The notes beneath the pieces are model-generated. The model was not told the DNA's origin, ran no database searches, and saw only the letters and a program-made list of their open reading frames with translations. Below, piece by piece: positions 5,278 to 32,000 of a stretch of 32,000 bases of DNA (position 1 is its first letter; every line of letters starts with the position of its first letter). This DNA is from Desulfobulbus propionicus DSM 2032 (GTDB lineage: Bacteria > Desulfobacterota > Desulfobulbia > Desulfobulbales > Desulfobulbaceae), in assembly GCF_000186885.1 (NCBI RefSeq), contig NC_014972.1:2550001-2582000 (forward strand), read 5' to 3'. The translations under genes and the position numbers were made by a program.

Positions 5278-5298
5278 TCGCCACCTTTGAGGTTTCCC

Positions 5299-5712: not shown

Positions 5713-5824
5713 ACACCGGGAAGGCTGAAAGCGCCTGACCGCCGGTTCATTTCACCGTTAAGATTGCGGCCAGCACAACCGACAAGAAAACCAGCCACCT
5801 TCTCCTCACGACAAGGGCACAACC

Positions 5825-6559: not shown

Positions 6560-6611
6560 TGGCCGCGCCTGGTTGCGATATAAAAACTAGCTCTGCACGC
6601 GAGGCACACCC

Positions 6612-7394: not shown

Positions 7395-7398
7395 CGGA

Positions 7399-8349: not shown

Positions 8350-8351
8350 TC

Positions 8352-9092: not shown

Positions 9093-9097
9093 CGACC

Positions 9098-10231
9098 ATG
9101 GAGGGCATTGCCATGACCCCGCGAATTTATCGCCTCGGCCTTTCCGTCCTGCTGACCGTTTTCTGCATCGCAGCGGATGCCTCCGCAACCCGCATCAAGG
9201 ACCTGGCGGATATCGAAGGCGTGCGCGACAATCAGCTGATGGGATACGGCCTGGTGATCGGCCTCAACGGCACCGGTGACGACATCAAGAAATCGGTGTT
9301 CACCAAGCAGGCCATGATCAACATGATCAAACGCATGGGCATGGCCATCCCCGAGGATGTGTTCAAACAGATGAAAACCGACAACGTGGCCGCGGTCATG
9401 GTCACCGCCCAGCTGCCGCCCTTTGCCCGGCCTGGTTCCGCCATCGACATCCAGGTTTCTTCCATCGGCGACGCCTCCAGCCTTTCCGGGGGCACGCTGC
9501 TTATGACCCCGTTGAAAGGCCCGGACGGCAATACCTATGCCGTGGCCCAAGGGCCGTTGGCGGTCGGCGGCATCGCTTTTGGCGGCAAGGCGGCCAAAGC
9601 GCAGAAGAATTTCCCCACGTCCGGCCACCTCACCGGCGGGGCGATTGTCGAGCGGGCGGTCAATTATGCTTTGCCTCCCTCCGGCGACCTGTTGTACCAG
9701 CTCCGCGACACCGATTTCACCACCGCCTCCCGCATGGCCGAGGCCATAAACGCCCATTTTGGCAGCGGGACGGCCAAACCCATGGATTCCCGCACGGTCA
9801 AGGTCACCAAACCGTCGCGTGTCAAGGGAGATGTCGTGAGCTTTATCTCGGATCTGGAGAGCATCGAAATCGAGCCGGACCGACCGGCAAAGATCGTGGT
9901 CAACGAACGAACCGGCACGATCGTCATGGGGCAGGATGTCCGTATTTCCACGGTGGCGGTTTCGCACGGCAACCTCAATCTGGTGATCTCCGAAGCCACG
10001 GAAGTGTCCCAACCCAACCCGCTGGCCGCCGGCACCACCGTGGCGGCCCCGGCAACGACCATCACCGCGACCGAAGAGGCGGGCAATCTGGTTGTCCTGC
10101 CGATGGGCGTCAATCTGGGTGAAATCGCCAGGGCGCTCAACGCCATCGGCGCCACCCCCCGTGATCTGATCGCCATTTTTCAGGCCATCAAGGCCGCCGG
10201 CGCCCTCCAGGGCGAACTGGTCATCTTATAA
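9098..10231 (+). CDS. flgI: FlgI P-ring protein
   Basis: 377 aa. Signal peptide, then RIKDLADIEGVRDNQLMGYGLVIGLNGTGD and C-terminal LGEIARALNAIGATPRDLIAIFQAIKAAGALQGELVIL. An alternative ATG at 9113 is possible. Confidence 0.95.
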   Translation: MEGIAMTPRIYRLGLSVLLTVFCIAADASATRIKDLADIEGVRDNQLMGYGLVIGLNGTGDDIKKSVFTKQAMINMIKRMGMAIPEDVFKQMKTDNVAAVMVTAQLPPFARPGSAIDIQVSSIGDASSLSGGTLLMTPLKGPDGNTYAVAQGPLAVGGIAFGGKAAKAQKNFPTSGHLTGGAIVERAVNYALPPSGDLLYQLRDTDFTTASRMAEAINAHFGSGTAKPMDSRTVKVTKPSRVKGDVVSFISDLESIEIEPDRPAKIVVNERTGTIVMGQDVRISTVAVSHGNLNLVISEATEVSQPNPLAAGTTVAAPATTITATEEAGNLVVLPMGVNLGEIARALNAIGATPRDLIAIFQAIKAAGALQGELVIL

Positions 10232-10262
10232 CGCATTGTGCACAGCCTTTGAGCGTATCTCC

Positions 10263-10574
10263 ATGAAAACAGGTCTTGACGCGAACCCTCTCCTCGCCGT
10301 TCCCCAATCTCCGGAAACGCAGCATGCACTCAAGGATCGACAGGCGCTGAAAAAATCCTGCCAGGATTTTGAGGCGATCTTCATCCAATCCCTATTCAAG
10401 GCCATGCGCAAGACCGTCCCTGACAACGGCTTGTTTCCACGGGACTCCTCCAGCCGTATGTATCAGGACATGATCGATCAGGAAATCGCCACCAATATCG
10501 CCCGGAAACAGAGTATCGGCCTGGCGGATCAAATGTATCGCCAGATGGAAAAAAAACTGCCCCCTGAAAAATAG
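10263..10574 (+). CDS. flgJ: FlgJ-like rod-binding protein (rod-binding domain only, no glycoside hydrolase domain)
   Basis: About 103 aa from ATG 10263 (the track starts at TTG 10236). ALKKSCQDFEAIFIQSLFKAMRKT and IGLADQMYRQM match the Rod_binding (FlgJ N-terminal) pattern. The ORF ends before any muramidase domain. Confidence 0.8.
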   Translation: MKTGLDANPLLAVPQSPETQHALKDRQALKKSCQDFEAIFIQSLFKAMRKTVPDNGLFPRDSSSRMYQDMIDQEIATNIARKQSIGLADQMYRQMEKKLPPEK

Positions 10575-10575
10575 C

Positions 10576-10618
10576 CGGTGCCTAGACAATTTTTTCTCAT
10601 GGCGCCGTGTGTTTTTTT
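10576..10618 (+). terminator. Possible intrinsic terminator after flgJ
   Basis: CGGTGCC (10576-10582) pairs with GGCGCCG (10601-10607), 7 bp including one G-U. The loop is 18 nt. UGUG then U7 follows (10612-10618). The long loop weakens the call. Confidence 0.4.
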
Positions 10619-10619
10619 G

Positions 10620-10647
10620 TAAAGTTTTTCCCCGCCGAGTCCGATAT
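10620..10647 (+). promoter_or_regulatory. Sigma-28 (FliA)-type promoter for the unknown gene-flgM-flgN unit
   Basis: TAAAGTTT (10620-10627) then TCCGATAT (10640-10647), i.e. TAAA-N16-tCCGATAT versus the consensus TAAA-N15-GCCGATAA/T. The geometry is the same as the promoter at 12076. Confidence 0.7.
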
Positions 10648-10655
10648 ACAAACTA

Positions 10656-10722
10656 ACAGGAAGAAAAATGCCTGTGAGCTTGGGCCAGGATGGCCCATAA
10701 TGGACTGCATGGAGGCAGAAAA
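10656..10722 (+). promoter_or_regulatory. 5' leader with GGA-bearing hairpins (candidate CsrA-binding leader)
   Basis: Hairpin ACAGG(10656-10660)/CCTGT(10671-10675). Perfect hairpin GGGCCA(10682-10687)-GGA(10688-10690)-TGGCCC(10691-10696). Further GGA at 10702-10704 and inside the SD GGAGG (10711-10715), 7 nt upstream of ATG 10723. Confidence 0.35.
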
Positions 10723-11289
10723 ATGGTACAAACAATCAATCAGAACCAGATGCACGGCACGCTTGCGACCTACCAGAGCGCAAGCATCGACATATCCAGG
10801 GTGGCCACCACCAGCATCGACGGCACCAAGGCGAGTACCACGGATACGCTTAACCTGCGACGCGAATCAACCGCTGCCGTTACCTATACCCAATCCATGC
10901 AGCTGACTGCCGCTGACGAATCCCGATACGGGATGTTGCGGGATTTGGTGGCCAACCTGCTGCAGGAACAGGGCGTCAACACCAAGATTGCTGTTGGCAA
11001 CAGCGAAATCGATATTGCGGCCGTCACTCCCGAAGAAGCGCAGGAACTCATCAGCGAAGATGGCTACTTCGGAGTGAAGCAGACATCGGAACGGATTTTC
11101 CAATTCGCCATCGGTGTTGCCGGAGGCGACGCGACACGCATCGATGCCATCAAGCAGGGGATTGACAAGGGATTTGCCGAAGCGAAAAAGGCTTTTGGCG
11201 ACTGGTTGCCCGACATCTCCTACGAAACCTACGATGCGGTGATGCAAAAACTCGATGACTGGGCGGCAGAATCAAAGGCTGTGGCTTGA
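10723..11289 (+). CDS. Uncharacterised flagellar-cluster protein (~188 aa): S/T/Q-rich N-terminus plus a conserved helical C-terminal domain
   Basis: The track ORF begins at ATG 10690, but ATG 10723 has a strong GGAGG SD at the ideal distance. C-terminal block GYFGVKQTSERIFQFAIGVAGGDATRIDAIKQGIDKGFAEAKKAFGDWLPDISYETYDAV resembles a domain of unknown function I recall as DUF5610 (unverified). Located between flgJ and flgM behind a sigma-28 promoter. Confidence 0.7.
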   Translation: MVQTINQNQMHGTLATYQSASIDISRVATTSIDGTKASTTDTLNLRRESTAAVTYTQSMQLTAADESRYGMLRDLVANLLQEQGVNTKIAVGNSEIDIAAVTPEEAQELISEDGYFGVKQTSERIFQFAIGVAGGDATRIDAIKQGIDKGFAEAKKAFGDWLPDISYETYDAVMQKLDDWAAESKAVA

Positions 11290-11344
11290 TATCTTTTCTT
11301 TATAGGTGAACGAGATGACCGTGGAATTTTTTGGAGTACGCAAC

Positions 11345-11602
11345 ATGGGGCAGATAGGCGGTCTCAATAAGTTAGGCCCAGCCGGTGAAACGCAAAAAAC
11401 CTCCAAATCCGAAGGCAAGGGAAATGTGTCCTTCTCGTCGGCCTTGCAGGGCGCGACGGCGACGCTTGCGACCGGCAAGGCCGAGGACGCGGAACGCGCC
11501 GCGCGGGTACAGGAACTGAAGGCCCAGGTGGCCAATGGCCAGTACGAGCCGGATCTGAACAAGGTGGCTTCCAGTCTGCTCAAGTTCCTGGTCGAGGGTT
11601 GA
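11345..11602 (+). CDS. flgM: FlgM anti-sigma-28 factor
   Basis: 85 aa from ATG 11345 (GGAG at 11333-11336). Alternative starts are GTG 11306 and ATG 11315. Gly/Ser/Lys-rich disordered N-terminus. C-terminal RVQELKAQVANGQYEPDLNKVASSLL is the typical FlgM sigma-28-binding helix region. Confidence 0.8.
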   Translation: MGQIGGLNKLGPAGETQKTSKSEGKGNVSFSSALQGATATLATGKAEDAERAARVQELKAQVANGQYEPDLNKVASSLLKFLVEG

Positions 11603-11606
11603 GAAC

Positions 11607-11960
11607 ATGGAACGTGAAACCGTGCGCGCCCTGCTGGTTCAGTTGCGCGAAACCATTCAAGCCGAGCGCGAGCATGCCAAAATGTTGGACCTGGCCTCGA
11701 TGATGGCCGATATCCGGCGCAAGGAGGCGATCATTCTCGCGCTCAACGGCGTAGACACTCTCCACCCCGATGACCAACAGGTTGCCCGGGAGATTCAGCG
11801 GGAAAACCGGCGCAACGCCTTCCTCTTCCGCGCGACCCTCAACTGGATCCAGGACACCATGGAATTCTTTGGCCGCAAGTCGGTTCCAGTCACCTACAAT
11901 CCTTATGGGCGTTCGCAGAATTCCACCATCAACGGCCGTCTGCTTTCCGGCAGAATCTGA
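11607..11960 (+). CDS. flgN: FlgN-like export chaperone (for FlgK/FlgL)
   Basis: 117 aa, helical. ALLVQLRETIQAEREHAKMLDLASMMADIRRKEAIILALNG fits the FlgN pattern loosely. The flgM-flgN-flgK-flgL order is conserved in many bacteria. The call rests mainly on position. Confidence 0.55.
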   Translation: MERETVRALLVQLRETIQAEREHAKMLDLASMMADIRRKEAIILALNGVDTLHPDDQQVAREIQRENRRNAFLFRATLNWIQDTMEFFGRKSVPVTYNPYGRSQNSTINGRLLSGRI

Positions 11961-12002
11961 GCGCCCACTTTCCAGCACCGCCGTCTCCTCTCTGTTCCTC
12001 CA

Positions 12003-12020
12003 TCGCCCGCCGCTGGGCGA
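12003..12020 (+). terminator. Weak hairpin after flgN
   Basis: TCGCCC(12003-12008)-gccgct-GGGCGA(12015-12020). A T5 run begins only about 12 nt later, so termination is uncertain. Confidence 0.3.
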
Positions 12021-12075
12021 CACTTCTGAATTTTTCATTCAAATCAAAATATTACGGCATTTTCTCCGCTCGAGC

Positions 12076-12103
12076 TAAACTCATTTCCCCCTCGTGCCGA
12101 TAG
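12076..12103 (+). promoter_or_regulatory. Sigma-28 (FliA)-type promoter for flgK-flgL
   Basis: TAAACTCA (12076-12083) then GCCGATAG (12096-12103), i.e. TAAA-N16-GCCGATAg. The spacing is identical to the promoter at 10620. Confidence 0.7.
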
Positions 12104-12120
12104 TAATATAACGTAACAAT

Positions 12121-12160
12121 TTGTTGCCAAGAATAGACGATCCTCGCTCCGGGGCAACAA
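12121..12160 (+). promoter_or_regulatory. flgK 5' leader stem-loop
   Basis: TTGTTGCC (12121-12128) pairs perfectly with GGCAACAA (12153-12160), with a 24-nt loop. Begins about 10 nt after the predicted sigma-28 transcription start. Confidence 0.4.
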
Positions 12161-12209
12161 CGCGCTCCTAGCCCGATCGCCCTCGATTCGTCAGAGAAAC
12201 CACAGTGCC

Positions 12210-13607
12210 ATGACCAGCCTTCTCAACGCATTGAATGCCGGCAAAACCAGCCTGCTGACCAATCAGAAATCCATCGAGATCGTCGGCAACAACATCGCCA
12301 ACGTCAACACCGAGGGCTATTCCCGGCAGCGCGCCGAGTTGATGCAGATCCCGGCGGTCAACTTCGGTGATTTTTTTGTTGGCCAAGGGGTGACCGTTTC
12401 CAATGTCAGCCGGGATTACAGTGTGTTCATCAACCGGCAGCTGCAAGAGAAGTCGATTGAATATGGCGAGGAAACAGGAAAATCCGATTCGCTCGCCGAA
12501 CTGGAGCGCATCTTCAACGTCACCGAGGACAATCTTGCCTCGGATATCAACGATTTCTTTGACGCCTGGCAGGAGCTGACCGCCAACCCGAGCGGCCAAG
12601 TGGAACGGGATGTGGTGATCCAACGGGGCAACCTGTTGGGAGAGGCTTTCCGCAGCATCACCGACGAGTTGGACACCGTTGAGCAAAACATGAACACCGC
12701 GATCATCGCCGAGGTTGAATACCTCAATGAAAAAATAGCGGAAATCGCCAAACTGAATGATCGGATCAATCTGGTCGAAATCTCCGGTCAAACGGCCAAC
12801 GCCGCCCGCGATCAACGCGATCTGATCATCAAGGATCTTTCGCAAACCCTTGGCATCCAAACCTATACCGACAATCGCGGGATGCTGTGCGTACAGCTGC
12901 CGGGCGGCATGCCGCTGGTCCAGGGCACCATGGCCTCGACCGTCAAGACGGTCACCGTGGGAACGGATGTCAATCTGCAGCTGGAAACCGTTGGCGTGAC
13001 CCTCGACATCGGTTTGAACAATCTTGGCGGTAAATTCAAAGGGATGTTCGAGATGCGCGATGTCTTTATCGACAACCTGCGCAGCGATCTCAACACCCTG
13101 GCCATAGACCTGACCAGCGCAGTCAACGCGGAACATGTGACCGGATATGGTTCAAACGGCCTGAGCGGCTATCTCTTCTTCAATGATATCAGCGCGCTTC
13201 CTCCCGGAGAGATTGCCAGCCGCAATGTTCTCGTCGCCATTACCGACACCACCCAGGTGGCCGCCGCGGGCAACCCCTCGGCCGCGCCCGGAGACAATGA
13301 AACCGCGCTGCGCATCGCCCAACTGGAAGTAACCCACAAGGTTGGCACGACCAACGACACCTTTGACAATTTCTTCAGCCAGATGGTGGCCACGGTGGGG
13401 ATCGAGGCGGCACGCAACGATTTGGCCCTCCAAGGGGCTCAAGACGCGGCAGTGCAACTGCAAAACCTCCGCGACGGCTATTCCGGAGTCTCCCTGGAAG
13501 AAGAAATGATCGATCTCATCCAATATCAGCGCGGGTTTGAATCCTCGGCCAAGTTTCTCGCCACGGTCGATGAAATGATGAATGCACTCCTTCAGCTCAA
13601 GGGATAA
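12210..13607 (+). CDS. flgK: FlgK hook-filament junction protein (HAP1)
   Basis: 465 aa. N-terminus SLLNALNAGKTSLLTNQKSIEIVGNNIANVNTEGYSRQ and C-terminus GVSLEEEMIDLIQYQRGFESSAKFLATVDEMMNALLQL are canonical FlgK. Confidence 0.95.
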   Translation: MTSLLNALNAGKTSLLTNQKSIEIVGNNIANVNTEGYSRQRAELMQIPAVNFGDFFVGQGVTVSNVSRDYSVFINRQLQEKSIEYGEETGKSDSLAELERIFNVTEDNLASDINDFFDAWQELTANPSGQVERDVVIQRGNLLGEAFRSITDELDTVEQNMNTAIIAEVEYLNEKIAEIAKLNDRINLVEISGQTANAARDQRDLIIKDLSQTLGIQTYTDNRGMLCVQLPGGMPLVQGTMASTVKTVTVGTDVNLQLETVGVTLDIGLNNLGGKFKGMFEMRDVFIDNLRSDLNTLAIDLTSAVNAEHVTGYGSNGLSGYLFFNDISALPPGEIASRNVLVAITDTTQVAAAGNPSAAPGDNETALRIAQLEVTHKVGTTNDTFDNFFSQMVATVGIEAARNDLALQGAQDAAVQLQNLRDGYSGVSLEEEMIDLIQYQRGFESSAKFLATVDEMMNALLQLKG

Positions 13608-13610
13608 GTC

Positions 13611-14579
13611 ATGAAAGCCACACAGGGAACGACCTATCGGATGCTGGGTTCTCGTCTCAACACGGTTGCCACGCAGCTGGAAGAACTGCGCAGCATTGGG
13701 GCCACCGGAAAGAAGCTCAACAACCCCTCGGACGATCCAGCCTCGATCCGCCCGGTGCTCAACACCCGCAAGCAGCTCTCCAATGTTGACCGCTACCTCG
13801 AAACCATGGGCAAGTCCCTGGACACCATGCAGGCCACCGACGGCCATCTTGAGCATGTGGAAAATATCATGCAGCGGGCCAAGGAAATCATGACCAATGC
13901 CATCAACGGCTCTCTCAACGATGCCGATCGATCGGTGCTGGCCGATGAAATCGCCCAGATCCGCAAGGAACTGCTCGACGCGGCCAACGGCATGGTGGGC
14001 GGCAAATACCTCTTTGCCGGCTATGAGGAAGATACTGTTCCCTTTGTGACCAATCCGGCCTACGACCCGGCCCTGTACGACCCAACCGATTCAACCACCT
14101 GGCCCTACCTTTATCAGGGGGATGAAAATTCCACCTCGCTGGAAATCACCACCGGCGAACTCATCCAGGTGAACCTGACCGGCAACGATCTTTTTTTCGG
14201 GACCTCAAGCTGGGACCCGGCAAATCCCAACAGCATCGAACCCGGCCGGTACGATCTGTTTGCCGAACTCACCCAAGCCGAGGAAGCCATCCGCGCCAAC
14301 GATCAGACTGCCATGCAGACCAGTCTCGCCGATCTGGAAGGGGCAGCCGAACAGAATCGGCGGTTGCGTTCCCAACTCGGCAATCGGGCCAGCCGGGTCG
14401 AAACCGCGATGGACTATCAGGAAGGCGTGCGGGTGGATCTCAAACAAATCCTTTCCCGCTACGAGGATGCCGATGCCATCGAGTCCTTCAATGCCATCGT
14501 CCAGCAGGAAACCGCTTTCCAGGCGGCGCTCAACGTCACCGCCAAGGTTTCGCAACTGTCCATCCTCGATTTCATCTAG
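13611..14579 (+). CDS. flgL: FlgL hook-filament junction protein (HAP3)
   Basis: 322 aa. Flagellin-like N-terminus (ATGKKLNNPSDDPASI) and C-terminal coiled region (LGNRASRVETAMDYQEG...AIVQQETAFQAALNVTAKVSQLSILDFI). Follows flgK by 3 nt. Confidence 0.92.
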   Translation: MKATQGTTYRMLGSRLNTVATQLEELRSIGATGKKLNNPSDDPASIRPVLNTRKQLSNVDRYLETMGKSLDTMQATDGHLEHVENIMQRAKEIMTNAINGSLNDADRSVLADEIAQIRKELLDAANGMVGGKYLFAGYEEDTVPFVTNPAYDPALYDPTDSTTWPYLYQGDENSTSLEITTGELIQVNLTGNDLFFGTSSWDPANPNSIEPGRYDLFAELTQAEEAIRANDQTAMQTSLADLEGAAEQNRRLRSQLGNRASRVETAMDYQEGVRVDLKQILSRYEDADAIESFNAIVQQETAFQAALNVTAKVSQLSILDFI

Positions 14580-16284: not shown

Positions 16285-17373
16285 TCACTCACACCTTGGT
16301 GAACCGCCTCCGTGCACGGCGGCATTCGCGGGGTCGATGATGACCGTAACCGGCATGCCCAGGCGTAATTCCTGGTCCGGGTCGCAGGCAAAGATACGGG
16401 CGCGGTAGACCAATTTGGTGCGCAATTCGGTGGTTTCCACGGTCTTGGGGGTAAATTCGGCGGTGGACGAAATAAAACCGACCCAGCCCTTGTAGATCTT
16501 TTTCGGTTGACTGTCAGTCTGCACCTGCGCCGGCATGCCTTCGCGGATTTTGCCTAGATCTGGCTCGCTGATATAGGCCCGAATCCAGAGCGGATCGTTG
16601 AGCGCCAAGGTCAAGACCGGTGCGCCGGCCGCAGCCATGGCACCGGGTTCGAGGATGCGGTTGCGGATCACTCCGTCGGCCGAGGCCAGCAGGCGGCTGT
16701 CGACCAACCGCTGCTGGGCCAGCTCTCGCGCCGACTGGAGCGCGGTCAGGGTCGCCTCGGCAGCGGCGATATCTTCCCTGCGCGGTCCCTCAATGGTCAG
16801 CGACAGTTCTTGCTCGGCGGTCTTCAGCCCGGCCTGCAGCGTCTGCACTCGCGCCTTGGCACTGTCGATCTCCTGCTGAGAAATGCGGTTGGTGACCAGC
16901 AGTGACTGTTTACGGGCAAGGATCAATTCCGCTTCCCTGAGAGTGGCCCTCGCCGATTCCACGGCAGCGCGGGCCTTTCCGATTTCCTGCGGCCGGCTGC
17001 CGGTTCGCAGCCGCTCCAACTGGCGGGTTTGCGCCTCCACCTCTCCCTTCAGGCGGTCGACCTCCATCCGAAACCGGGCAGGATCAAGCTCCGCCACCAC
17101 CTGCCCTTTCTTGACTAGGGCCCCTTCGTCCACGTGCAGGTGAAGGATCCGCCCCGCATCCTGAAACGCCAGCTGCACCTCGCGAATATCGACATTGCCG
17201 TACAAGGTCAGCGGACCGTTGCCCTGCTCCTCTCCCTGATCCGAACAGGCACTGGCACCGAGCAGGCAGCAACACACAAGTCCAAGCAGGAGGAAGCGAT
17301 ATGGCGAGGCGATGGACAGTGGTGCTCGTCGCTTCATCTGGGCCATGCAATCAACAATTTGTTTCGCCGTCAT
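16285..17373 (-). CDS. HlyD/YbhG-family periplasmic adaptor lipoprotein
   Basis: 362 aa. Lipobox [50 protein letters not shown] (YbhG-like). A long coiled-coil hairpin and a C-terminal beta-barrel. Start is either 17373 (ATGA overlap with yjbQ) or ATG 17337 (MKRRAPLS...). Confidence 0.85.
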
Positions 17374-17786
17374 TCGCCAATGATCTTGACCAGCACCCGT
17401 TTCTTGCGCCGGCCGTCGAATTCCCCGTAGAAGATCTGCTCCCAGGTGCCGAAATGGAGTTTGCCCTCGGTGATCGCCACGACCACCTCCCTCCCCATGA
17501 TCTGCCGTTTCAGATGGGCATCGGCATTGTCCTCGTAGCCGTTGTGGCGGTACTGGTTGACCGGTTCATGGGGAGCGAGCCGTTCCAGCCACTGTTCATA
17601 ATCGTCATGCAGCCCCGGCTCATCGTCATTGATGAACACCGAAGCGGTGATGTGCATGGCGTTGCACAACAGCAACCCCTCGCAAATACCGCTTTCCGCC
17701 ACGCATTTTTCCACGTCTGGGGTAATGTTGATCAAGGCGCGTCGGGTGGGGACATGAAACCAGAGTTCTTTATGATAACTTTTCAT
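17370..17786 (-). CDS. yjbQ: YjbQ/UPF0047-family protein (secondary thiamine-phosphate synthase-like)
   Basis: 138 aa. [52 protein letters not shown]...[39 protein letters not shown] matches the family closely. Confidence 0.9.
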
Positions 17787-17824
17787 GTGTCGTCTTTGCC
17801 AAAGGGAAAAAGCGACCGGTCCGG

Positions 17825-18889
17825 TCAGTCGACGTTATTGGCCGCAATGCGGCTGAAGTGAGGTTCGACCTGGAGAAAGGCCTCAATCAAGATCGGGTCG
17901 AAGTGAGTGCCTTTCCCCTCGATCATGATCCGCATGGCCTCGTCATGGGTCATGGAATTCTTGTACACCCGTTTGGAAATCAGGGCATCGTAGACATCGG
18001 CAATGGCCATGATCCGGCCGGCCAGAGGGATAGCCTCGCCGGCGAGTCCGCGCGGATAGCCGCTGCCGTCATACTTTTCATGGTGACTGCCGGCGATCTC
18101 CTTGGCGCAGCTAAGAAAGGAGGTCGGCTGGCCGGCCATCTGCTCCAGATTGGCTATGACCTCCTCGCCGAACAAGGTGTGCATCTTCATCTCTTCAAAC
18201 TCTTCCGGCGTGAGCTTGCCCGGTTTGAGCAGAATCGAATCACGGATGGCCACCTTGCCGATATCGTGCAACGGAGCGGATTTCCACAACAGAACATTGT
18301 ATTCGGGGGTGAGTTGATCACAAAAATGGCCACGATTGACCAAGGTATCGGCCAACAGCTGCACATAGGCGCGGGTCCGATGGATATGGCTGCCGGTTTC
18401 CGGGTCGCGATACTCAGCCAGTTCGCCCATGGCCTCGATGATCACATCCTTGAGCAGTTCGGCCTCCTGGGTCCGCTCTTCCACCAACCGTTCGAGATTG
18501 CTGCGGTAGGCATGCAGTTCCAGATGGTTGCGTACCCGGGAACGGAGTTCCACTCCCTTGAAAGGTTTGGTGATGTAATCGACACCGCCAAGATTGAACC
18601 CCTGGACCACGTCCTCGGATTCGGCCCGAGCAGTCAGAAAGATCACCGGAATGGATCGGGTCGCCGTGTTCTGATTGAGCATCTCCACGGTCTTGAAGCC
18701 GCTCATGCCCGGCATCATCACATCCATCAGGATCAATTCCGGCTGGGTGGCGGCGATCCGTTCCAGGGCCTGCTCGCCCGATGTGGCGTAGGCAAAGTCG
18801 CAGTTGAGTTCCTTCAGATGGGACATGGCGATCTGAATGTTCTCCGGGACATCGTCGACGATGAAGATGAGAGGCTTTTTTCGGTTCAT
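17825..18889 (-). CDS. Response regulator with HD-GYP domain (RpfG-like c-di-GMP phosphodiesterase)
   Basis: 354 aa. REC domain ([10 protein letters not shown]...[14 protein letters not shown]...TKPF). HD-GYP domain with HDIGK and [11 protein letters not shown]. Confidence 0.93.
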
Positions 18890-25274: not shown

Positions 25275-25302
25275 TCGTTGAATTTTAGACATCATTCAAC
25301 GA
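25275..25302 (-). other. Inverted repeat at the 3' end of the AT-rich orphan gene
   Basis: TCGTTGAAT (25275-25283) and ATTCAACGA (25294-25302) form 9 bp with a 10-nt loop. It spans the stop codon (25292-25294). No U-tract follows on the minus strand. Confidence 0.4.
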
Positions 25303-25669
25303 TCTGATTTTTTCTTGTGACAAAAGTGCGCTGTAGCTTTTTCTTGAGGTATTCAAGGTATTCCATTCCTTCGCTTGTCAATTCCCAAATACCTCTTCCT
25401 GATTGTTCAGCTGATTTGACATAACCATGGTGTTGTTTGGCTCTTTCTTTTGCCCATGCAACATCATGTTTCCATCGCGGTACGTTGTTTGCTACTTTTT
25501 CATGATATACAGGATCAGAGAATTCTTTTTTTAGCAGTTCGTACATTTTGCCATCGACTTCGGATTTCAACACTTTATTCCCCATTGATCCAATTGCCAG
25601 TATAAGTATAGGGATCAAGTCATCTTGAGATAAATTTTTCCCTTTTAACAATTTCCTGACAAGATCCAT
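25292..25669 (-). CDS. Small stand-alone winged-helix protein resembling the Mrr N-terminal (Mrr_N) DNA-binding domain; compositionally foreign
   Basis: 125 aa. VPRWKHDVAWAKERAKQHHGYVKSAEQSGRGIWELTSEGMEYL follows the pattern of the Mrr_N wing/recognition region (W..v.WA...l...G.i.....rG.W.lT..G). A/T-ending codons dominate, unlike all neighbours. The GAGG SD overlaps the stop of the upstream gene. Confidence 0.6.
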   Translation of the reverse strand: MDLVRKLLKGKNLSQDDLIPILILAIGSMGNKVLKSEVDGKMYELLKKEFSDPVYHEKVANNVPRWKHDVAWAKERAKQHHGYVKSAEQSGRGIWELTSEGMEYLEYLKKKLQRTFVTRKNQIVE

Positions 25670-25678
25670 GCCCTGCCC

Positions 25679-27559
25679 TCAGAATTCCATGTGAAAGCTG
25701 TAGACACCCTCTTCCAGCTGACTGGTGACCTTGAGGCCGGAATGGTTGAACACGTTCTGCATCCGCTCGTTTTCCCGCAGGACCTCGGCGGTGAAGCCGG
25801 CAATGCCGTTGCGTTTGGCGATCTTGATCAGGTGCTGGAAGAGGAAGGTACCCAGTCCCTTGTTCTGCCAGCCATCGCGGACCACGAAGGCCACCTCGGC
25901 CAGGTTGGTCTTTTCATTGAGGTAGTAGGTGCCGACCGCGATGATCTGTTCGCCATGCGCCTCGGGCACAGTGCCCACCACGGCCACGTCGCGGCGGTGG
26001 TCGATATAGACGAAATCCTGGATCTGGCGCGGGGTGAAGCGCTGCTGCCGGCTCATGAAGCGGTAATAGATGGTCTCCTGGCTGAGGTTGTAGATCAGGT
26101 CGCGCATGTGGGGCTCGTCGGTGGGCTTGATCGAACGGAAATCGATCTCGGTGCCGTCCTCCATGAGGAAGGTGGCGCGGATCGATTCCTCCACCGGAAT
26201 CATGAACCGATTGCCGAAACGGGCCAGGTCGGGCCGCAGGTACTTGGCCGCCACCGCCTCGCGGAACAGCTGCTCGCGGAAATCCGGATGGGCAATCGAA
26301 ATCAGGGCCATGACCCGCTCGGCGATCGACTTGCCGTGCAGATAGGCCACGCCGTATTCGGTGACCACGTAGTGGACGCTGGCCCGGTTGATGACCACCC
26401 CCGAACCGGGTTGCAGGGTGCAGACGATGCGCGAGGCATCGCCCTCCCTGTTCAACGACGGCAGGGTGATGATCGCCCGGCCGCTCTCCGCCTTGGCCGC
26501 GCCGCGATTGAAGTCGATCTGGCCGCCGATGCCCGAATAAAAGCGGCCGCCCACCGAATCCGAGCAGACCTGGCCGGTGAGGTCGATCTCCAGGGCCATG
26601 TTGACCGCCACCATCCGCTTGTGCTTGCCGATGACGTTGGCGTCGTTGATGTATTCGGTGGGCCGGAAGCTGAACAGCGGGTTGTCGTGGATGTAGTCGT
26701 AAAGCTTCTTGGTGCCCATGCAGAAACTGGCGGTGATCTTGCCCTTGTCGATGGTCTTCATCGCCCCTGTCACGGCCCCGGATTCGATCAGGGGGATGAT
26801 GGTGTCGGAGATCATCTCGGTGTGGAAGCCGATATCCTTGCGATCATGCAGAAATTCCATCACCACCTGGGGAATGCGGCCATAGCCCGGAACCCGACCG
26901 AGCCCCAATTCGATGGTCGAGCCGTTAGGAATCAGGGCAGCGGCGGTCTGGGCGATCTTGCGGCTGATCGGGTTGGGCGGATCAATGGCCCGCTCCAGGA
27001 TCGGCCGGTCCACCGGCACCAGGATATCGAGATCAAAGACATCGACCAGGGTATCGCCGTGAGTCCAGGGCATGTTGGGGTTGACCTCGGCGATCACCAG
27101 CGAGGCGTTCTCGGTGGCGCTGCGGACGATGTCCACCGAAATGCCCAGGCTGACCCGGCCACGGGTGTCGGGCGGGGTCACCTGGATCAGGGCCACGTCG
27201 ATGGGCAGGCTGCCGGAGTCGAACAGCTTGGGTACGTCGGAGAGCAGGATCGGGGTGTAGTCGCCAAATCCTTCCTGGATGACGTCGCGGATGTTGGAGC
27301 TGATGAAAAAGGCGTTGATGGCGAAACTGTCGGCCATCTTCTTGTCGGCGTAGGGGGCGTCGCCCTTGGTGATCAGCTGGATGATCTCGACGTTGGTCAG
27401 CGAGCGGGCCCGCTGGGTCATGGCCGCGATCAGCTCCTGGGGCGCGCCGCAGCCGGTGCCGATGAACACCCGCTGGCCGGCCTTGAGGTGGCTGAGGGAC
27501 TGGGCCGGGGTGGCGATCATGTCACTGTATTTTTCCTGCCAGTTGTGTTCGTATTCCAT
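25679..27559 (-). CDS. Fusion protein: acetyl-CoA hydrolase/CoA-transferase (AbfT/Cat1-like) plus a C-terminal Pat-type GNAT acetyltransferase
   Basis: 626 aa. Residues 1 to about 440 are the CoA-transferase fold (GTGCGAPQ, GFHTEMISD with the catalytic-Glu context, SGIGGQIDF). Residues about 465-626 (nt about 25682-26167) are the GNAT, with IKPTDEPHMRDLIYNLSQETIYYRF and the acetyl-CoA loop WQNKGLGT. By my recollection this aligns block by block with the C-terminal GNAT of Salmonella Pat. Confidence 0.9.
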   Translation of the reverse strand: MEYEHNWQEKYSDMIATPAQSLSHLKAGQRVFIGTGCGAPQELIAAMTQRARSLTNVEIIQLITKGDAPYADKKMADSFAINAFFISSNIRDVIQEGFGDYTPILLSDVPKLFDSGSLPIDVALIQVTPPDTRGRVSLGISVDIVRSATENASLVIAEVNPNMPWTHGDTLVDVFDLDILVPVDRPILERAIDPPNPISRKIAQTAAALIPNGSTIELGLGRVPGYGRIPQVVMEFLHDRKDIGFHTEMISDTIIPLIESGAVTGAMKTIDKGKITASFCMGTKKLYDYIHDNPLFSFRPTEYINDANVIGKHKRMVAVNMALEIDLTGQVCSDSVGGRFYSGIGGQIDFNRGAAKAESGRAIITLPSLNREGDASRIVCTLQPGSGVVINRASVHYVVTEYGVAYLHGKSIAERVMALISIAHPDFREQLFREAVAAKYLRPDLARFGNRFMIPVEESIRATFLMEDGTEIDFRSIKPTDEPHMRDLIYNLSQETIYYRFMSRQQRFTPRQIQDFVYIDHRRDVAVVGTVPEAHGEQIIAVGTYYLNEKTNLAEVAFVVRDGWQNKGLGTFLFQHLIKIAKRNGIAGFTAEVLRENERMQNVFNHSGLKVTSQLEEGVYSFHMEF

Positions 27560-27601
27560 GGCAAACCCCTTGCGTGGGTGAAAATGGCGCGGCGGGCCGG
27601 G

Positions 27602-29722
27602 TTAGAGACCGGCCAACGGCCGGGCAAAGGTCATACGGGCGTCGGCCACCACCGGTTCGTTGCCGATCTCGCCGACAATCAGGGGATTGATGTCCAGTTC
27701 GACGATCTGGGGAAAATCGGTGGTCAGCTGGCTGATCCGTTGCAGAGACACGGCAATGGCGCTGATGTCCACCTCCTTGAGGCCGCGCTTGCCCTCGAGC
27801 AGCTCGTAGGAGCGGGTCGACTTGAGCATCTGGATGGCCTCGTTCTCGGTGATCGGCGCCAGGTGGAAGGTGACATCCTTCATCACCTCGACGAAGATGC
27901 CGCCCAGACCGAACATCAGCATCGGCCCGAACTGGGGGTCGCGGGTCATACCGATGATCACCTCCAGGCCCTTCTCGGCCATCTTCTCCACATAGACACC
28001 CTCGACAATGGCGTTGGGCGCGTGCTTGTTGATGCGCAGCATCATCAGGTCAAAGGCGTCGGCCACCTCCTGGCTGGAGCCGATGTTGAGCCGCACCCCG
28101 CCCAGATCCGACTTGTGGACGATACTGGGCGAGACGATCTTCATCGCCACCGGAAAGCCGATGAAACGGGCTATCTCCACCGCCTCCTCGAGGCTGGTGG
28201 TCAACCGGCCCTCCATGATGCGGAAGCCGTAGGCCTTGAGAATGTCCTTGGACTTGACCTCGCCCAGCCGGAGCCGGCCGGTGCGCTGGCGGCGGGTGAT
28301 GATCCGCTCCACCCGGCGGCGGTTAACCGGGAAACGGACCACATGGCGAGCCGGCCGTCGTTTCCATTCGCCATACTCGTGCATGGCCTTGAGCGCACCC
28401 ACGGCCCGTTCGGGCGAGTCGTAGAAGGGCAGTCCGGCCGCGGCCAGTTCCTTGCGCGAAGGCATGACGTCCGACCCGCCGAGGAAGGAGGCGAGCACCG
28501 GGGTGGTTTCGTCCATGTGGGCGACAATGGCCCTGACCGTGGCCGCCGGCTGAGTCATGTACTGGGGCGCCAGCACCACCAGGATGGCGTCGATGGAGTC
28601 GTCGGCCACGGCGCTGTCGATGGCGGCGGCATAGTGGCGCGGTTCGGCGTCGGCAGAGATGTCGATCGGGTTGTCGATGAAGGCGGCCGGCGGCAGCTCC
28701 GCCCGCAACCGTGCCACCAGCGAATCGCTCAGCCGGGTGACGCTCAGGCCGGATTTCTCCACCGCGTCGGCGGCCATGGTGCCGGAACCGCCCGAGTTGG
28801 TGATAACCAGCACCCGGTCACCCCGAGGCGTGGGCTGCAGGGCGAGCGCGGTGGCATAGTCGAACAGGGCCTCGAAACTGTCGGCCCGGCAGATGCCGGC
28901 CCGTTTGAAGGCCGCGCCGTAGGCGGTGTCCTTGCCGGCGAGCACGCCGGTGTGATTGGCCGCGGCCTTGGTGCCGGCCACGGTGGTGCCGGCCTTGAGG
29001 ATCACCACCGGTTTGCGGCTGCTGGCTTCCTGGGCTGCCTTGACGAACTTGTCGCCGTCGCTGATGTCTTCCAGATAACCGACAATGACCTTGGTTTCAT
29101 CGTCCTGGGCCAGGGCGGCGAGCACATCGACCTCGGTGATGTCCGCCTTGTTGCCGATGGAGATCGATTTCGACACCCCGAGCTCGCGCTCGTCGGCGAT
29201 GTCCATCATGGCGGTGCACAGGGCCCCGGATTGGGAGAAGATGGCCAGATGGCCGCGCTGGGGAATGCGTTTGGAAAAGGAAGCGTTCAGTTTGATGGCC
29301 GTGTTGATGATGCCCAAGCAGTTGGGGCCCAGGAGCCGCACCCCGCCCCTGCGGCAGATCTCGGTCAGCTCTTCCTCCAGCTTCCGCCCGTGGGGTCCGG
29401 TTTCCTTGAATCCCGAGGCCACCACCACGATGGCGCCGGCCTTTTTCTTGACCGCCTCGCGGGCAGCGGCCGGAACCATCTCCGCCGGGACCGCGATCAC
29501 CACCAAATCCACGGGGTGGGGATAGTCGGCGATGGTGGGGTAGACCTTGAGGCCAAACAGTTCGCCCCCGGCCGAGTTGACCGGCGCGATCGGGCCGGGA
29601 AAACCACTCTTGACCAGATTGCTCACCGTGTCGTAGCCGACCTTGCCCACGGTCTTGGAAGCGCCGATCACCGCGATCGACTCCGGGGAAAACAGTCTAT
29701 CGAGCATGGCCACCTCGTTCAT
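27602..29722 (-). CDS. ADP-forming (NDP-forming) acetyl/acyl-CoA synthetase, fused alpha-beta type
   Basis: 706 aa. CoA-binding N-terminus SIAVIGASKTVGKVG, LGPNCLG, phosphohistidine loop AAANHTGVLAG (His retained), and a C-terminal ATP-grasp (FPVAMKIVSPSIVHKSDLGGVRLN). ATGA overlap with the upstream CBS gene. Confidence 0.92.
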   Translation of the reverse strand: MNEVAMLDRLFSPESIAVIGASKTVGKVGYDTVSNLVKSGFPGPIAPVNSAGGELFGLKVYPTIADYPHPVDLVVIAVPAEMVPAAAREAVKKKAGAIVVVASGFKETGPHGRKLEEELTEICRRGGVRLLGPNCLGIINTAIKLNASFSKRIPQRGHLAIFSQSGALCTAMMDIADERELGVSKSISIGNKADITEVDVLAALAQDDETKVIVGYLEDISDGDKFVKAAQEASSRKPVVILKAGTTVAGTKAAANHTGVLAGKDTAYGAAFKRAGICRADSFEALFDYATALALQPTPRGDRVLVITNSGGSGTMAADAVEKSGLSVTRLSDSLVARLRAELPPAAFIDNPIDISADAEPRHYAAAIDSAVADDSIDAILVVLAPQYMTQPAATVRAIVAHMDETTPVLASFLGGSDVMPSRKELAAAGLPFYDSPERAVGALKAMHEYGEWKRRPARHVVRFPVNRRRVERIITRRQRTGRLRLGEVKSKDILKAYGFRIMEGRLTTSLEEAVEIARFIGFPVAMKIVSPSIVHKSDLGGVRLNIGSSQEVADAFDLMMLRINKHAPNAIVEGVYVEKMAEKGLEVIIGMTRDPQFGPMLMFGLGGIFVEVMKDVTFHLAPITENEAIQMLKSTRSYELLEGKRGLKEVDISAIAVSLQRISQLTTDFPQIVELDINPLIVGEIGNEPVVADARMTFARPLAGL

Positions 29723-30375
29723 GGGGTTTTCTGGGGGACGTGGACCACAAAGCCGTCGGCTTCCAAGGCTTTATGCACCGAACGGACGTTGTAGGTATTG
29801 ATGCGCAGATAGATCATGGCCCGGCGCTTGTCGGTGCCTTCGGCCCGCACCAGGCGGGTAAACTGGACCTGCTTTTCCTCCATGATCCGCACCAGCTTGC
29901 TCAGGGCCTGCGGGTCCTGATTGTCCTCAATCGAGACCAACACCGATCCCTTGGCACCCAGGCCGAACAGGTCGCGGTAGGCGTTCATCAGGTCGGCGGT
30001 GGTGAAGACCCCGACCACCTTTTCCTCCTCGTTGACCACCGGCAGGGCGCCGATCTTGCGCGACTGGAACAGCAGCAGGGCGTCGTCCAGGGTGGCATGG
30101 GGGACAAGGAAGAGGCAATCGCGGGTCATCAGCACGGAAACTGGTGTTTTGTTGACCTTTTCCTCGACCGTTCCCCGTTCTTTGCTCTGGGCCACGGTGG
30201 AAGGCCGGGCCGAACGCAGGTCGCGGTCGGAAAGAATCCCCTGAAGCACGCCCTGTTCATCGACCACCGGCAGGTGGCGGATATTGTAGCGTTGCAGGAT
30301 GTCGATCGCCTCGGCCACGGTCTGCTCCGGAGTAACCGTGACCGGTGACGGTGTCATGTGATCGTGGATGAACAT
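29719..30375 (-). CDS. acuB: AcuB-like CBS-pair plus ACT-like domain protein
   Basis: 218 aa. Two CBS motifs (IRHLPVVDEQGVLQGILSDRDL; IGALPVVNEEEKVVGVFTTADL). The C-terminal segment of about 70 aa (GSVLVSIEDNQDPQALSKLVRIMEEKQVQFTRLV) is ACT-like. Confidence 0.85.
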   Translation of the reverse strand: MFIHDHMTPSPVTVTPEQTVAEAIDILQRYNIRHLPVVDEQGVLQGILSDRDLRSARPSTVAQSKERGTVEEKVNKTPVSVLMTRDCLFLVPHATLDDALLLFQSRKIGALPVVNEEEKVVGVFTTADLMNAYRDLFGLGAKGSVLVSIEDNQDPQALSKLVRIMEEKQVQFTRLVRAEGTDKRRAMIYLRINTYNVRSVHKALEADGFVVHVPQKTP

Positions 30376-30409
30376 CGATATACTCCCCTGGTTTTATTGC
30401 TGTGTGCAC

Positions 30410-31375
30410 TCATTCATCGGTCTCCACAAGCCCGGACAAATAGGCTTCAACGCAAACACCAAGTTTTTCAAGAAAATATCCGCCCTCAAGGATCGAGAGC
30501 ACGCGCCCTTGGGTGTAGTCGCGGGCGAGTTCCGTCACAAAGTTGCCCAGCCGCCGATAGAGATCGACGGTGAAGGCCAGGCCCGACATGTCGTCCTGGC
30601 GGTGGGCGTCGAATCCGGCGCCGACGATCAGGGCATCGGGCCGGATGGTGTCGAGAAAATTTCTGATCTTGGGAAAAAGACGCAGTACTTGCTCCGCGCC
30701 GGCGCCGGGGGGCAACGGCAGATTGAGGATGGTGCCCTTGCCGGGACCGACCCCCTTGTCCTCGGCCCAGCCGGTTCCGGGATAGCTGAAGCTGGGATGC
30801 TCGTGAATCGATATATAGGCGGTGTCCGCCTCTTGCTCGAAAGCGGTCTGGATGCCGTTGCCGTGGTGGGCGTCGAAATCGAACACGCACACCCGGCGGC
30901 GGCTGTACTCCTGCTGCCAGTAACGGGCGGCGATCACGCAGTTGTTGAAAAAACAGAATCCATAGGGCTGGTTGGGTTCGGCGTGATGGCCCGGTGGCCG
31001 GGTCTGGCAGAAGACCACCGTTCCCGGCTGGCGCTCGATCCTGTCCACCCCGACCAGGCCGGCACCAGCGGACAGGGTGGCGATGTCAAAGGATTCGTAG
31101 CCCACTTGATTGTCGGGATGGTCGATATAGGTGCGACCGGAGAGCACCGCCTCCTCGAAGCGAAACAACCAGCCCTCGGTATGGAAGGTCAGCAGTTGGG
31201 CACGGGTGGCCGGACGGGGGGCGAAGGTGCGGATGCGCCCGGCCAGGTGTCCCTGCATGAGCCGGTCAGTGATCACCTGCATCCGCTCGGGCGCTTCCGG
31301 ATGATCACCGCCGCCGGTATCGTGCCGGCAAAAAGCGGGGTCGGTGATGAGGGTAATGGCAGGCTCGTTTTCCAT
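30410..31375 (-). CDS. acuC: AcuC/histone-deacetylase-family protein deacetylase
   Basis: About 321 aa from ATG 31375 (the track starts at GTG 31387). RPPGHHA, FDFDAHHGNG, GFDAHRQD and EGGY are the Zn-dependent HDAC/AcuC/APAH signatures. Confidence 0.92.
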   Translation of the reverse strand: MENEPAITLITDPAFCRHDTGGGDHPEAPERMQVITDRLMQGHLAGRIRTFAPRPATRAQLLTFHTEGWLFRFEEAVLSGRTYIDHPDNQVGYESFDIATLSAGAGLVGVDRIERQPGTVVFCQTRPPGHHAEPNQPYGFCFFNNCVIAARYWQQEYSRRRVCVFDFDAHHGNGIQTAFEQEADTAYISIHEHPSFSYPGTGWAEDKGVGPGKGTILNLPLPPGAGAEQVLRLFPKIRNFLDTIRPDALIVGAGFDAHRQDDMSGLAFTVDLYRRLGNFVTELARDYTQGRVLSILEGGYFLEKLGVCVEAYLSGLVETDE

Positions 31376-31644
31376 TGCAAGGTCCACTGATCAGACGGCC
31401 GACCGGCAGCGCTGCGCCTCCGGTGTGACTGTGTCGCTCAACCTTACCGTATTCCTCGACAAAAACGAAGCGTATCTTCGCTTTCCCGCCACAACTTTTT
31501 GCCCAGTCACGGAAAACCCCTCCCGCCACATCGATACAACGCACGCATCACGCGATCAATCCTGCGGTAGCGAACCTTGAGGCACGATGGCGTCTTGCAG
31601 CGTCCTTGCCCCTCCGTCGGCTCTTTTTTTGCTGATTACAGCAG

Positions 31645-31671
31645 GGGACCCAAACGGCCCTTTATTTTTTT
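31645..31671 (+). terminator. Orphan terminator-like hairpin plus T-tract on the + strand
   Basis: GGG(A)CC (31645-31650), CAAAC loop, GGCCC (31656-31660), then TTTATTTTTTT (31661-31671). A second small hairpin TGCTG-ATTA-CAGCA (31630-31643) follows a T7 run (31624-31630). No + strand CDS lies upstream. Confidence 0.3.
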
Positions 31672-31675
31672 AGGT

Positions 31676-31743
31676 AACTCTAAATGACACTTGACAACAG
31701 ACCTCCGTTAAGGCATAAAACTCTAAATTTAGTTTTATCTAAA
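31676..31743 (+). promoter_or_regulatory. AT-rich control region: repeated AACTCTAAAT boxes flanking a TTGACA-N17-CATAAA promoter
   Basis: AACTCTAAAT occurs at 31676-31685 and 31719-31728. TTGACA at 31691-31696 and CATAAA at 31714-31719. Perfect palindrome CTAAATTTAG at 31723-31732. A third TCTAAA at 31738-31743. Confidence 0.4.
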
Positions 31744-31905
31744 ACTATAAGGTCGTATAAATATACAATCTACCCTCAACACGGTTCGCGCACAAGCACC
31801 GGTCCATCCGTCGCGGCGACCGGCTTGCCTGTCGCACCCGTTGTGCCAATGCCCCATCCGTGATCCCATGAATGAAGGTACGCCCTACTCCTGGAGGTTG
31901 TTATC

Positions 31906-32000
31906 ATGGAAGCGACTGCATCAAGTGTCCGCGCCACGCACCGCAAAAAAATCTGGCATATCGACAGCTGCTACAAATGTGCCCTGATCGGCACCTGCCT
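31906..32000 (+). CDS. 5' end of an unidentified ORF (Cys-rich N-terminus), truncated by the window edge
   Basis: GGAGG (31893-31897) lies 8 nt upstream of ATG 31906. Reads MEATASSVRATHRKKIWHIDSCYKCALIGTC... and contains an H-x3-C-x2-C pattern. Too short to assign. Confidence 0.5.
   Translation, partial: MEATASSVRATHRKKIWHIDSCYKCALIGTC

Follow-up and report, generated by a model that had tools for sequence, protein, structure and literature searches.

What is a coenzyme A (CoA)-transferase doing on the same polypeptide as a presumed protein lysine acetyltransferase? The question is raised by a locus of Desulfobulbus propionicus DSM 2032, studied here within a 32-kb window (the whole stretch of DNA analysed, 32,000 nt). 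Four co-oriented minus-strand open reading frames (ORFs), spanning 25679-31387, encode in gene order a Zn-dependent deacetylase, a homologue of AcuB, an ADP-forming acyl-CoA synthetase (ACD) and a CoA-transferase::GNAT fusion. The successive junctions are a 34-nt gap, a 4-nt ATGA overlap and a 42-nt gap, and purine-rich ribosome-binding sites (AGGGGAG and AAGGGG) lie 7-8 nt 5' of the second and fourth start codons; the four genes are probably one operon. The locus is quite probably a reversible protein-lysine acylation module within an acyl-CoA/carboxylate operon. Its best explanation as a whole, to which we give roughly even weight for and against, is an acetylation module whose Pat-type writer prevents futile cycling against the ACD.

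The fusion (ORF 25679-27559, minus strand, 626 residues) carries the Pfam domains AcetylCoA_hydro (PF02550), AcetylCoA_hyd_C (PF13336) and GNAT. Its C-terminal part, residues 462-622 (25694..26176, minus strand; PF00583 and PF13302), belongs to the Pat clade. All eight PDB matches of this region at E<=0.001 are Pat-clade protein lysine acetyltransferases (SlPatA, PatZ, MtPat), and the closest characterised relatives of this GNAT fold, with its Q/RxxGxG/A motif, are SePat/PatZ, SlPatA and MtPat. The NCBIfam mycobacterial Pat model also matches (3.4e-22, under its whole-protein cut-off). The ExxYYRF (ETIYYRF) and AE(V/F/I)A signatures align (AEVAF against AEVAF, AEFAV and AEIAF), and E555 of the fusion aligns with E235 of MtPat. 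A554-E555 and N597 are retained in 78/78 relatives, and the acetyl-CoA motif Q565xxGxG (Q565-N-K-G568-L-G570) is largely kept, with Q565 in 77/78, G568 in 67/78 and G570 in 77/78. On these alignments the GNAT domain is presumed to be a protein lysine acetyltransferase, i.e. the writer of the module. The domain 5' of it is not the NDP-forming-synthetase-like one of type I Pat architecture, the N-terminal 435 residues being a CoA-transferase.

That CoA-transferase domain (residues 5-435; 26255..27547, minus strand; PF02550 and PF13336) is of family I and of the 4-hydroxybutyrate/butyryl-CoA:acetate type. Residues 11-435 match solved 4-hydroxybutyrate CoA-transferases across their full length (9vag, 9e-120; 3eh7, 3e-106), and both marks of family I, the two-domain fold and the Glu that forms the glutamyl-CoA thioester, are found by sequence. 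GxHTE248 is retained in 78/78 relatives and GGQxDF in 77-78/78; the counterpart of E248 in RipA is Glu249 (PMC3180442). The equivalog model TIGR03948 scores 288.7 against a cut-off of 674.8, i.e. far below it. In the subfamily of the window the transferase still looks active, judged from its residues, and by analogy a role for the domain as sensor is plausible. An AlphaFold2 model of the fusion built on an 11-sequence alignment (mean pLDDT 40.9, pTM 0.28) is unusable for domain packing or channelling. A six-residue insertion, RVPGYG (fusion residues 222-227; 26879-26896, minus strand), sits in the GxG loop, which was described as the acyl-CoA gating loop in the work on RipA (PMC3180442). About 34 loci carry the insertion, most of them labelled Desulfobulbaceae or Desulfocapsa-type; Desulfurivibrionaceae-type loci lack it, as do all other phyla and the solved 4-hydroxybutyrate CoA-transferases.

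Which of the two domains is the constant one becomes evident from distant relatives. A search of 1.84 billion representative proteins yielded at least 86 two-domain fusion clusters at 50% identity, the 86 representatives reaching as low as 31% identity to the window protein. The acidic GNAT residue is E or D in about 78/86 representatives and N597 hardly varies. In 34/86 another residue stands in place of the transferase nucleophile Glu, and GGQxDF is often degraded; GNAT function is therefore independent of CoA-transfer catalysis in those branches. Across these sequences the GNAT is the constant catalytic element and the transferase has repeatedly turned non-catalytic, in parallel to the dead ACD domain of Pat. 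Two of the distant proteins, P0154 (L081, 2122-4989) and P0183 (L082, 6001-9042), join CoA-transferase, GNAT and Hist_deacetyl in a single chain. In both, the nucleophile Glu is replaced (HSGL, HTDI), GGQxDF is degraded and no ACD gene adjoins; by motifs, one deacetylase domain is class II-like and the other class I-like. Only one of eight distant fusions examined (P0128, 42% identity) has a neighbouring ACD, so the pairing with ACD belongs to the subfamily of the window. A link between loss of the transferase Glu and loss of ACD was considered and rejected: none of four distant Glu-less members has a neighbouring ACD, yet it is also missing beside two of the three distant members that keep the Glu, and the pairing thus goes with the subfamily, whatever the residue. 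P0125, a candidate ACD::CoA-transferase fusion, was likewise rejected, its out-of-frame low-complexity stretches being a frameshift artefact.

Other architectures were seen in the same search. P0127 (L083, 6001-8883) and P0137 carry an N-terminal 4Fe-4S dicluster domain before the CoA-transferase and GNAT, and P0212 joins a response-regulator receiver to a CoA-transferase with no GNAT. The distant fusion P0143 (Glu to Asp) lies directly 3' of a gene for citrate synthase, another acetyl-CoA-consuming enzyme (L089/L090, 4415-5701 and 6001-7926).

The gene preceding the fusion encodes an ACD of the fused alpha-beta type (27602..29722, minus strand, 706 residues) with CoA_binding_2, Succ_CoA_lig, Ligase_CoA_2 and ATP-grasp_5 domains (Pfam). 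Solved ACDs are matched by it, i.e. 8wzu (2e-152) and both the alpha and beta subunits of 4xyl. Its phosphohistidine loop, AAANHTGVLAG, aligns with 'aaashtgsiag' of 4xyl, placing His257 on the catalytic His of 4xyl, 2csu and 8wzu; at the same position the loop is deleted in E. coli PatZ ('aaqr----llnttag'). Among 73 relatives His257 is retained in 71, SQSG 163-166 in 69-72 and His536 in 68. NCBIfam scores are 563.5 for TIGR02717 (cut-off 567.15) and 617 for the 4-hydroxybutyrate-CoA ligase model (cut-off 1300).

The deacetylase (30410..31387, minus strand, 325 residues from a GTG) is spanned over its full length by Hist_deacetyl (PF00850, 1.6e-78); judged from the start in the relative L001, translation probably begins at an ATG at 31375 (321 residues, MENEP...). 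RPPGHH, DFDAHHGNG, GFDAH and EGGY motifs are present, and the best single-domain solved matches are class II enzymes (5ji5, HdaH, 5zmp and HDAC6 domains). With full-length PF00850 and these motifs, the enzyme belongs by sequence to the class II (HdaH-like) Zn lysine deacylases of the arginase-deacetylase fold. RPP and xGGY mark robust deacetylases among bacterial enzymes (PMC11532494). By its family and motifs it is presumed to be the eraser of the module.

Between these two genes lies the AcuB homologue (29719..30375, minus strand, 218 residues), a CBS pair (3.9e-33 in Pfam) with a C-terminal ACT-like domain. The ACT domain is not called by Pfam; residues 8-212 of the protein align end to end with GsAcuB (9s4w, residues 8-205, 7e-25), and TTHA0829 (5awe) and BsAcuB (9qs7) are matched as well. 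Since the alignment covers the full length of solved AcuB structures, the ACT domain is present by homology. R33/H34 (in IRHLPVVD) and R51 are retained, which in B. subtilis AcuB bind diadenosine tetraphosphate (Ap4A) (PMC13039410). AcuB binds and inhibits AcuC in an AMP- or Ap4A-dependent manner (PMC13121692, PMC13039410); both studies date from 2026 and cover Bacilli and class I AcuC only. By analogy, the homologue is presumed to be an adenine-nucleotide/Ap4A-dependent inhibitor of the neighbouring deacetylase.

A sequence-only reading of this DNA had already described four co-oriented genes with tight junctions, a Pat-type GNAT fused to a CoA-transferase, a separate and intact ADP-forming synthetase with its phosphohistidine loop, and an AcuB-type CBS-CBS-ACT protein. 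ORF positions and junctions, the Pfam domains and the uniformly Pat-clade PDB matches of the GNAT, and the loop alignment with its retained His257 agree with that description, as does the AcuB assignment, with the ACT domain resting on alignment to structural homologues and not on Pfam. Its term 'AcuC-type' for the deacetylase was imprecise, the enzyme being class II and HdaH-like and not an orthologue of the class I AcuC of Bacillus.

How much of this arrangement is held together elsewhere was surveyed with one genome per species. The fusion has at least 595 relatives, and the proteins of the four genes were mapped onto the 80 best, all of them loci with a full-length fusion (48-95% identity). 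The ACD is directly upstream of, and co-oriented with, the fusion in 75/80 loci. In a further four it lies within a few kb, one contig is too short to judge and one locus has no ACD. Labels of loci with ACD and fusion include Desulfobulbales and other Thermodesulfobacteriota, Verrucomicrobiota, Lentisphaerota/Kiritimatiellota, Planctomycetota, Hydrogenedentota, Myxococcota (Polyangia), Magnetococcales and others. The complete four-gene form is found in 24 loci, nearly all Desulfobulbales, at fusion identities down to 58%, and in 24 loci the deacetylase is directly 5' of the AcuB-like gene. The conserved core is therefore ACD plus CoA-transferase::GNAT. Some Desulfobulbales loci with complete flanks (L022, L024 and L030) are without the deacetylase/AcuB pair; on gene content, the pair is a lineage-level addition. 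The co-occurrence of all four genes looked for by the sequence-only reading thus holds in part: the set is conserved across Desulfobulbales and the ACD-fusion pair in many phyla, but the full set does not extend beyond.

A deacetylase gene lies within 10 kb of the fusion in 41/80 loci. In eight of the loci, mostly of Planctomycetota or Verrucomicrobiota, a deacetylase about 30% identical to that of the window follows directly downstream of the fusion; the one checked (Pirellulales locus L077) is class I/AcuC-like. The occurrence of two deacetylase classes in two gene orders speaks for a functional link rather than for an arrangement inherited from a common ancestor. In addition, an AMP-forming Acs bearing the PKTRSGKIMRR acetylation motif is encoded within about 8 kb of the module in 10/80 loci, often beside an MFS transporter; in L048 the order is ACD, fusion, AcuC-like deacetylase, Acs.

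Two loci of the survey depart from the usual order. In L072 (Pirellulales) a restriction-modification-like three-gene cassette (2802-5373), comprising a D12 adenine methyltransferase, a DUF6996/DUF6997 protein and an N6_N4 methylase, lies between ACD and fusion. L062 (Verrucomicrobiae) has, within 17 kb, two full-length paralogues of the fusion and a further match to the transferase part only (1409-3250, 10001-11842 and 17067-18326), and its ACD-like gene (37% identity) is downstream and not upstream.

How might such a module work? When the operon is on, the ACD, with or without the CoA-transferase, would turn acetyl-CoA or other short acyl-CoAs into free acid and ATP, a step that CoA transfer to acetate from other short acyl-CoAs may precede; the pairing of a CoA-transferase with an ADP-forming ligase is known as an ATP-yielding acetate pathway (10.1101/2020.04.13.039867). 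The co-expressed GNAT would acetylate AMP-forming acyl-CoA synthetases encoded elsewhere and block the ATP-consuming back reaction, such that no futile cycle could run against the ACD. The CoA-transferase domain would bind acyl-CoA or carboxylate and tune the GNAT, as the regulatory domain of PatZ does, which binds acetyl-CoA and shapes the Acs pocket (PMC12184503). The deacetylase would remove the mark, and the AcuB homologue would inhibit the deacetylase according to adenine-nucleotide/Ap4A status, as in the AcuB/AcuC pair of Bacillus. The reversible lysine-acylation module built from acu-like and Pat-like parts, as the sequence-only reading had it, is supported by the Pat-clade GNAT, the AcuB homologue with R33/H34/R51 and the intact ACD, and further by the two deacetylase classes found beside the fusion and by the single chains P0154 and P0183.

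Several points weigh against this account. Co-transcription of the four genes is read from their spacing and conserved order, which are its sole basis. AMP-forming Acs is the likeliest target of the writer, at somewhat less than an even chance, and is named from gene neighbours in other phyla only; no AMP-forming synthetase is encoded in the 32-kb window, and the Desulfobulbales loci have none closer than 10 kb. Phylogenetic clustering of the 10 Acs-linked loci (PVC group and Planctomycetota) means that they cannot be counted as 10 separate events, and the taxon labels of the survey derive from metagenome-assembled genomes and may in some cases be wrong. Class II enzymes of cluster 1b were unable to remove the acetyl group from B. 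subtilis AcsA-K549ac in vitro (PMC11532494). To extend inhibition by AcuB to a class II enzyme is an extrapolation, the partner of Bacillus AcuB being class I. Finally, strict active-site conservation in the clade of the window (78/78) points to real catalysis by the transferase, not to sensing alone.

Four other explanations have to be set against acetylation of a distant synthetase. The sequence-only reading held that the GNAT acylates the ACD, its own transferase domain or both, with reversal by the deacetylase, the CoA enzymes being sensors and targets at once. The near-invariant ACD-fusion adjacency with its short or overlapping junctions would fit such a physical partnership, K27, K528 and K537 of the ACD are nearly invariant at functional sites, and Desulfobulbales loci encode no other obvious target nearby. 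However, PX4GK, the motif of Pat recognition in AMP-forming synthetases, is absent from all four window proteins, so that locus-encoded targets are not supported; the canonical Pat substrate Acs adjoins the module in 10 loci, distant fusions keep the GNAT mostly without an adjoining ACD, and the literature yielded no report of an ADP-forming synthetase regulated by acetylation. Self-targeting of the locus is for these reasons unlikely. The near-invariant adjacency would also suit a complex with the live ACD taking over, in trans, the allosteric and substrate-docking role of the dead PatZ domain, the pair resembling an ancestor of type I Pat. The gene order ACD then (CoA-transferase)GNAT mirrors the ACD-like then GNAT domain order of Pat, and the window ACD aligns with PatZ over residues 7-689 (3e-100). 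Yet catalytic ACDs of archaea match this ACD better (8wzu, 512 bits) than PatZ does (340 bits), and distant fusions function without an adjoining ACD, which leaves such a complex decidedly unlikely.

The conservation of the transferase site bears on a third explanation, in which the transferase, fed by an ACD that runs towards acyl-CoA synthesis, converts the free acid into propionyl-, butyryl-, 4-hydroxybutyryl-, lactyl- or succinyl-CoA for the fused GNAT, and non-acetyl lysine acylation reports the carboxylate present. The fusion would then be a self-supplying lysine acylase, its live transferase turning propionate, butyrate, 4-hydroxybutyrate or lactate into acyl-CoA for the GNAT while the ACD either primes the CoA pool or drains it, and the deacetylase/AcuB pair erases the mark again. 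Glu248 and GGQxDF are kept almost throughout the ACD-linked clade, which means that catalysis is under selection there. Propionate and lactate, on which Desulfobulbus lives, would fit such a supply. In E. coli, YdiF makes lactyl-CoA for the GNAT YiaC, in trans (PMC9636275). Loss of the nucleophile in 34/86 distant fusions with the GNAT retained, and the transferase NCBIfam scores far below equivalog cut-offs, as with TIGR03948, speak against it, and we consider both donor supply in general and a self-supplying acylase in particular improbable. A purely metabolic operon, with GNAT and deacetylase acting on small molecules such as polyamines or amino acids and ACD and transferase on short-chain acids, would accord with the many GNATs that are small-molecule enzymes and with the acetylpolyamine and xenobiotic amidohydrolases among relatives of bacterial class II deacetylases (PMC11532494); the PDB matches of the window deacetylase include 3men, 9gku and 9gkw. 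It is very unlikely in view of the eight of eight Pat-clade structures matched by the GNAT with aligned signatures, the pairing of the deacetylase with an AcuB homologue, a known type of protein-deacetylase regulator, the RPP and xGGY motifs of robust deacetylases, and the adjoining Acs in 10 loci.

The acetylation module proposed here shares features with several known systems and is identical to none of those compared. With Pat/PatZ of Salmonella and E. coli it shares a homologous GNAT with aligned signatures, a comparable N-terminal extension, a CoA-ligand-binding, enzyme-derived domain 5' of the GNAT and a genetic link to the NDP-forming acyl-CoA synthetase fold; the 10 Acs-linked loci add a link to the target of Pat itself. 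Unlike in Pat/PatZ, the fused domain is a family I CoA-transferase and not ACD-like, and the ACD is a separate gene with the loop that PatZ has deleted. As in Bacillus acuABC/acsA, a writer, a CBS-CBS-ACT protein and a Zn deacetylase occur in one operon, and the AcuB homologue is full-length. Here, however, the GNAT is of the fused Pat type and not a small stand-alone AcuA, the deacetylase is class II and not class I AcuC, the order is eraser, AcuB, ACD, writer with the ADP-forming synthetase added, and the window has no acsA, divergent or otherwise. acsA is divergent in Bacillus, whereas in some Planctomycetota loci of the module Acs is convergent, in opposite orientation. The SCACT/SCS pathway to acetate and ATP likewise combines a CoA-transferase of the acetyl-CoA hydrolase/transferase family with an ADP-forming CoA ligase of the succinyl-CoA-synthetase superfamily, but here the ligase is an ACD and not SCS, and the transferase is of the 4-hydroxybutyrate/butyryl type with a GNAT attached. 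In the YdiF-YiaC route of E. coli a CoA-transferase also supplies acyl-CoA for a GNAT lysine acylase (PMC9636275); these are separate proteins with no known fusion or operon link, the CoA-transferase is of a different subfamily and YiaC falls outside the Pat clade. Full-text literature searches found no paper on a CoA-transferase::GNAT fusion, nothing useful was found on Desulfobulbus CoA-transferase biochemistry, and the scheme of GNAT types I-V contains no CoA-transferase type (PMC12184503), in agreement with the earlier statement that the combination had not been characterised. NCBI annotation does name the fusion 'bifunctional acetyl-CoA hydrolase/transferase family protein/GNAT family N-acetyltransferase'; the architecture is thus known to annotation but unstudied.

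Upstream of the four genes, an intergenic region of about 525 nt (31388..31913, minus strand) separates the operon from a divergent plus-strand gene starting near 31914, and it should contain the promoter and leader. Synteny stops exactly here: the genes upstream of this region vary among L001, L005, L068, L008 and L013. In the nearest locus elsewhere the fusion protein is 95% identical. The four genes form the unit because synteny 5' of the deacetylase is not conserved. Of the upstream region, only one block can be aligned between the window, L001 and L002: a conserved 28-nt motif, TCGTTTTTGTCGAGGAATACGGTAAGGT (31441..31468, minus strand), about 55-65 nt 5' of the deacetylase start, which other relatives match in part; from its conservation and position it may be a promoter or operator, and a weak terminator-like hairpin call overlaps it. 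No sigma-70-type promoter match was found in 31388..31913, the scan giving 3 promoter-like sites in all against 1.9 expected and zero upstream of the operon. The terminator scan gave 11 terminator-like sites against 5.6 expected, most of them within genes. Rfam and tRNA scans of the window gave no matches, the upstream region being included for Rfam. A loosely sigma-54-like string, TGGCAC-N5-GTGC (31834-31848, minus strand), lies about 450 nt 5' of the operon, close to the start of the divergent gene (31914-32000, plus strand), whose product begins MEATASSVRATHRKKIWHIDSCYKCALIGTCL and which is cut by the end of the window. NtrC-type sigma-54 activators occur near the module in eight related loci.

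At the other end, a fifth small co-oriented ORF (25292-25669, minus strand, 125 residues) begins 9 nt past the fusion stop codon. It has a weak Mrr_N match (5.3e-06, below the Pfam cut-off), sits in an AT-rich dip in GC content (0.51 against about 0.62) and is absent from all close relatives, where uvrB comes about 100-200 nt after the fusion. It looks like a strain-specific insertion and may ride on the operon transcript. Long plus-strand ORFs across the operon (e.g. 25691-29794, 1367 residues) were rejected as antisense shadow ORFs of high-GC genes; their translations are of low complexity and overlap well-supported genes. The remainder of the window is unrelated to the operon, comprising APS kinase, two-component genes, a cobyrinate diamide synthase-like gene, DUF374, uvrB and a flagellar gene cluster at 200-14579 (plus strand; flhA, flhF, a MinD/FlhG-like ATPase, a fliA-type sigma factor, flgF/G/A/H/I, flgK and a flagellin-like gene).

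Bacterial lysine acetyltransferases are classed by their attached domain, i.e. a dead ACD, a cAMP-binding, ACT or NADP-binding domain, or none. The locus represents a large, uncharacterised further type, with 86 or more clusters at the 50% identity level, drawn from Thermodesulfobacteriota, the PVC group, Planctomycetota, Hydrogenedentota and others, and in the subfamily of the window the fusion gene is locked to an ATP-yielding ADP-forming acyl-CoA synthetase. Its transferase sites, which run from intact to degenerate, and its writer-eraser chains provide a natural series for the passage from metabolic enzyme to regulatory domain, the route presumed for Pat. A self-supplying acylase, if true, would write carboxylate-specific lysine acylations as a direct read-out of the acid present and would be a new class of bacterial protein acyltransferase in many phyla. 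The acetylation model, if true, would describe the way in which anaerobes fix the direction of flux at the acetate/acyl-CoA node without wasting ATP in cycles between ADP- and AMP-forming synthetases, and would extend the AcuB mechanism from the class I deacetylases of Firmicutes to the class II deacetylases of sulfate reducers.

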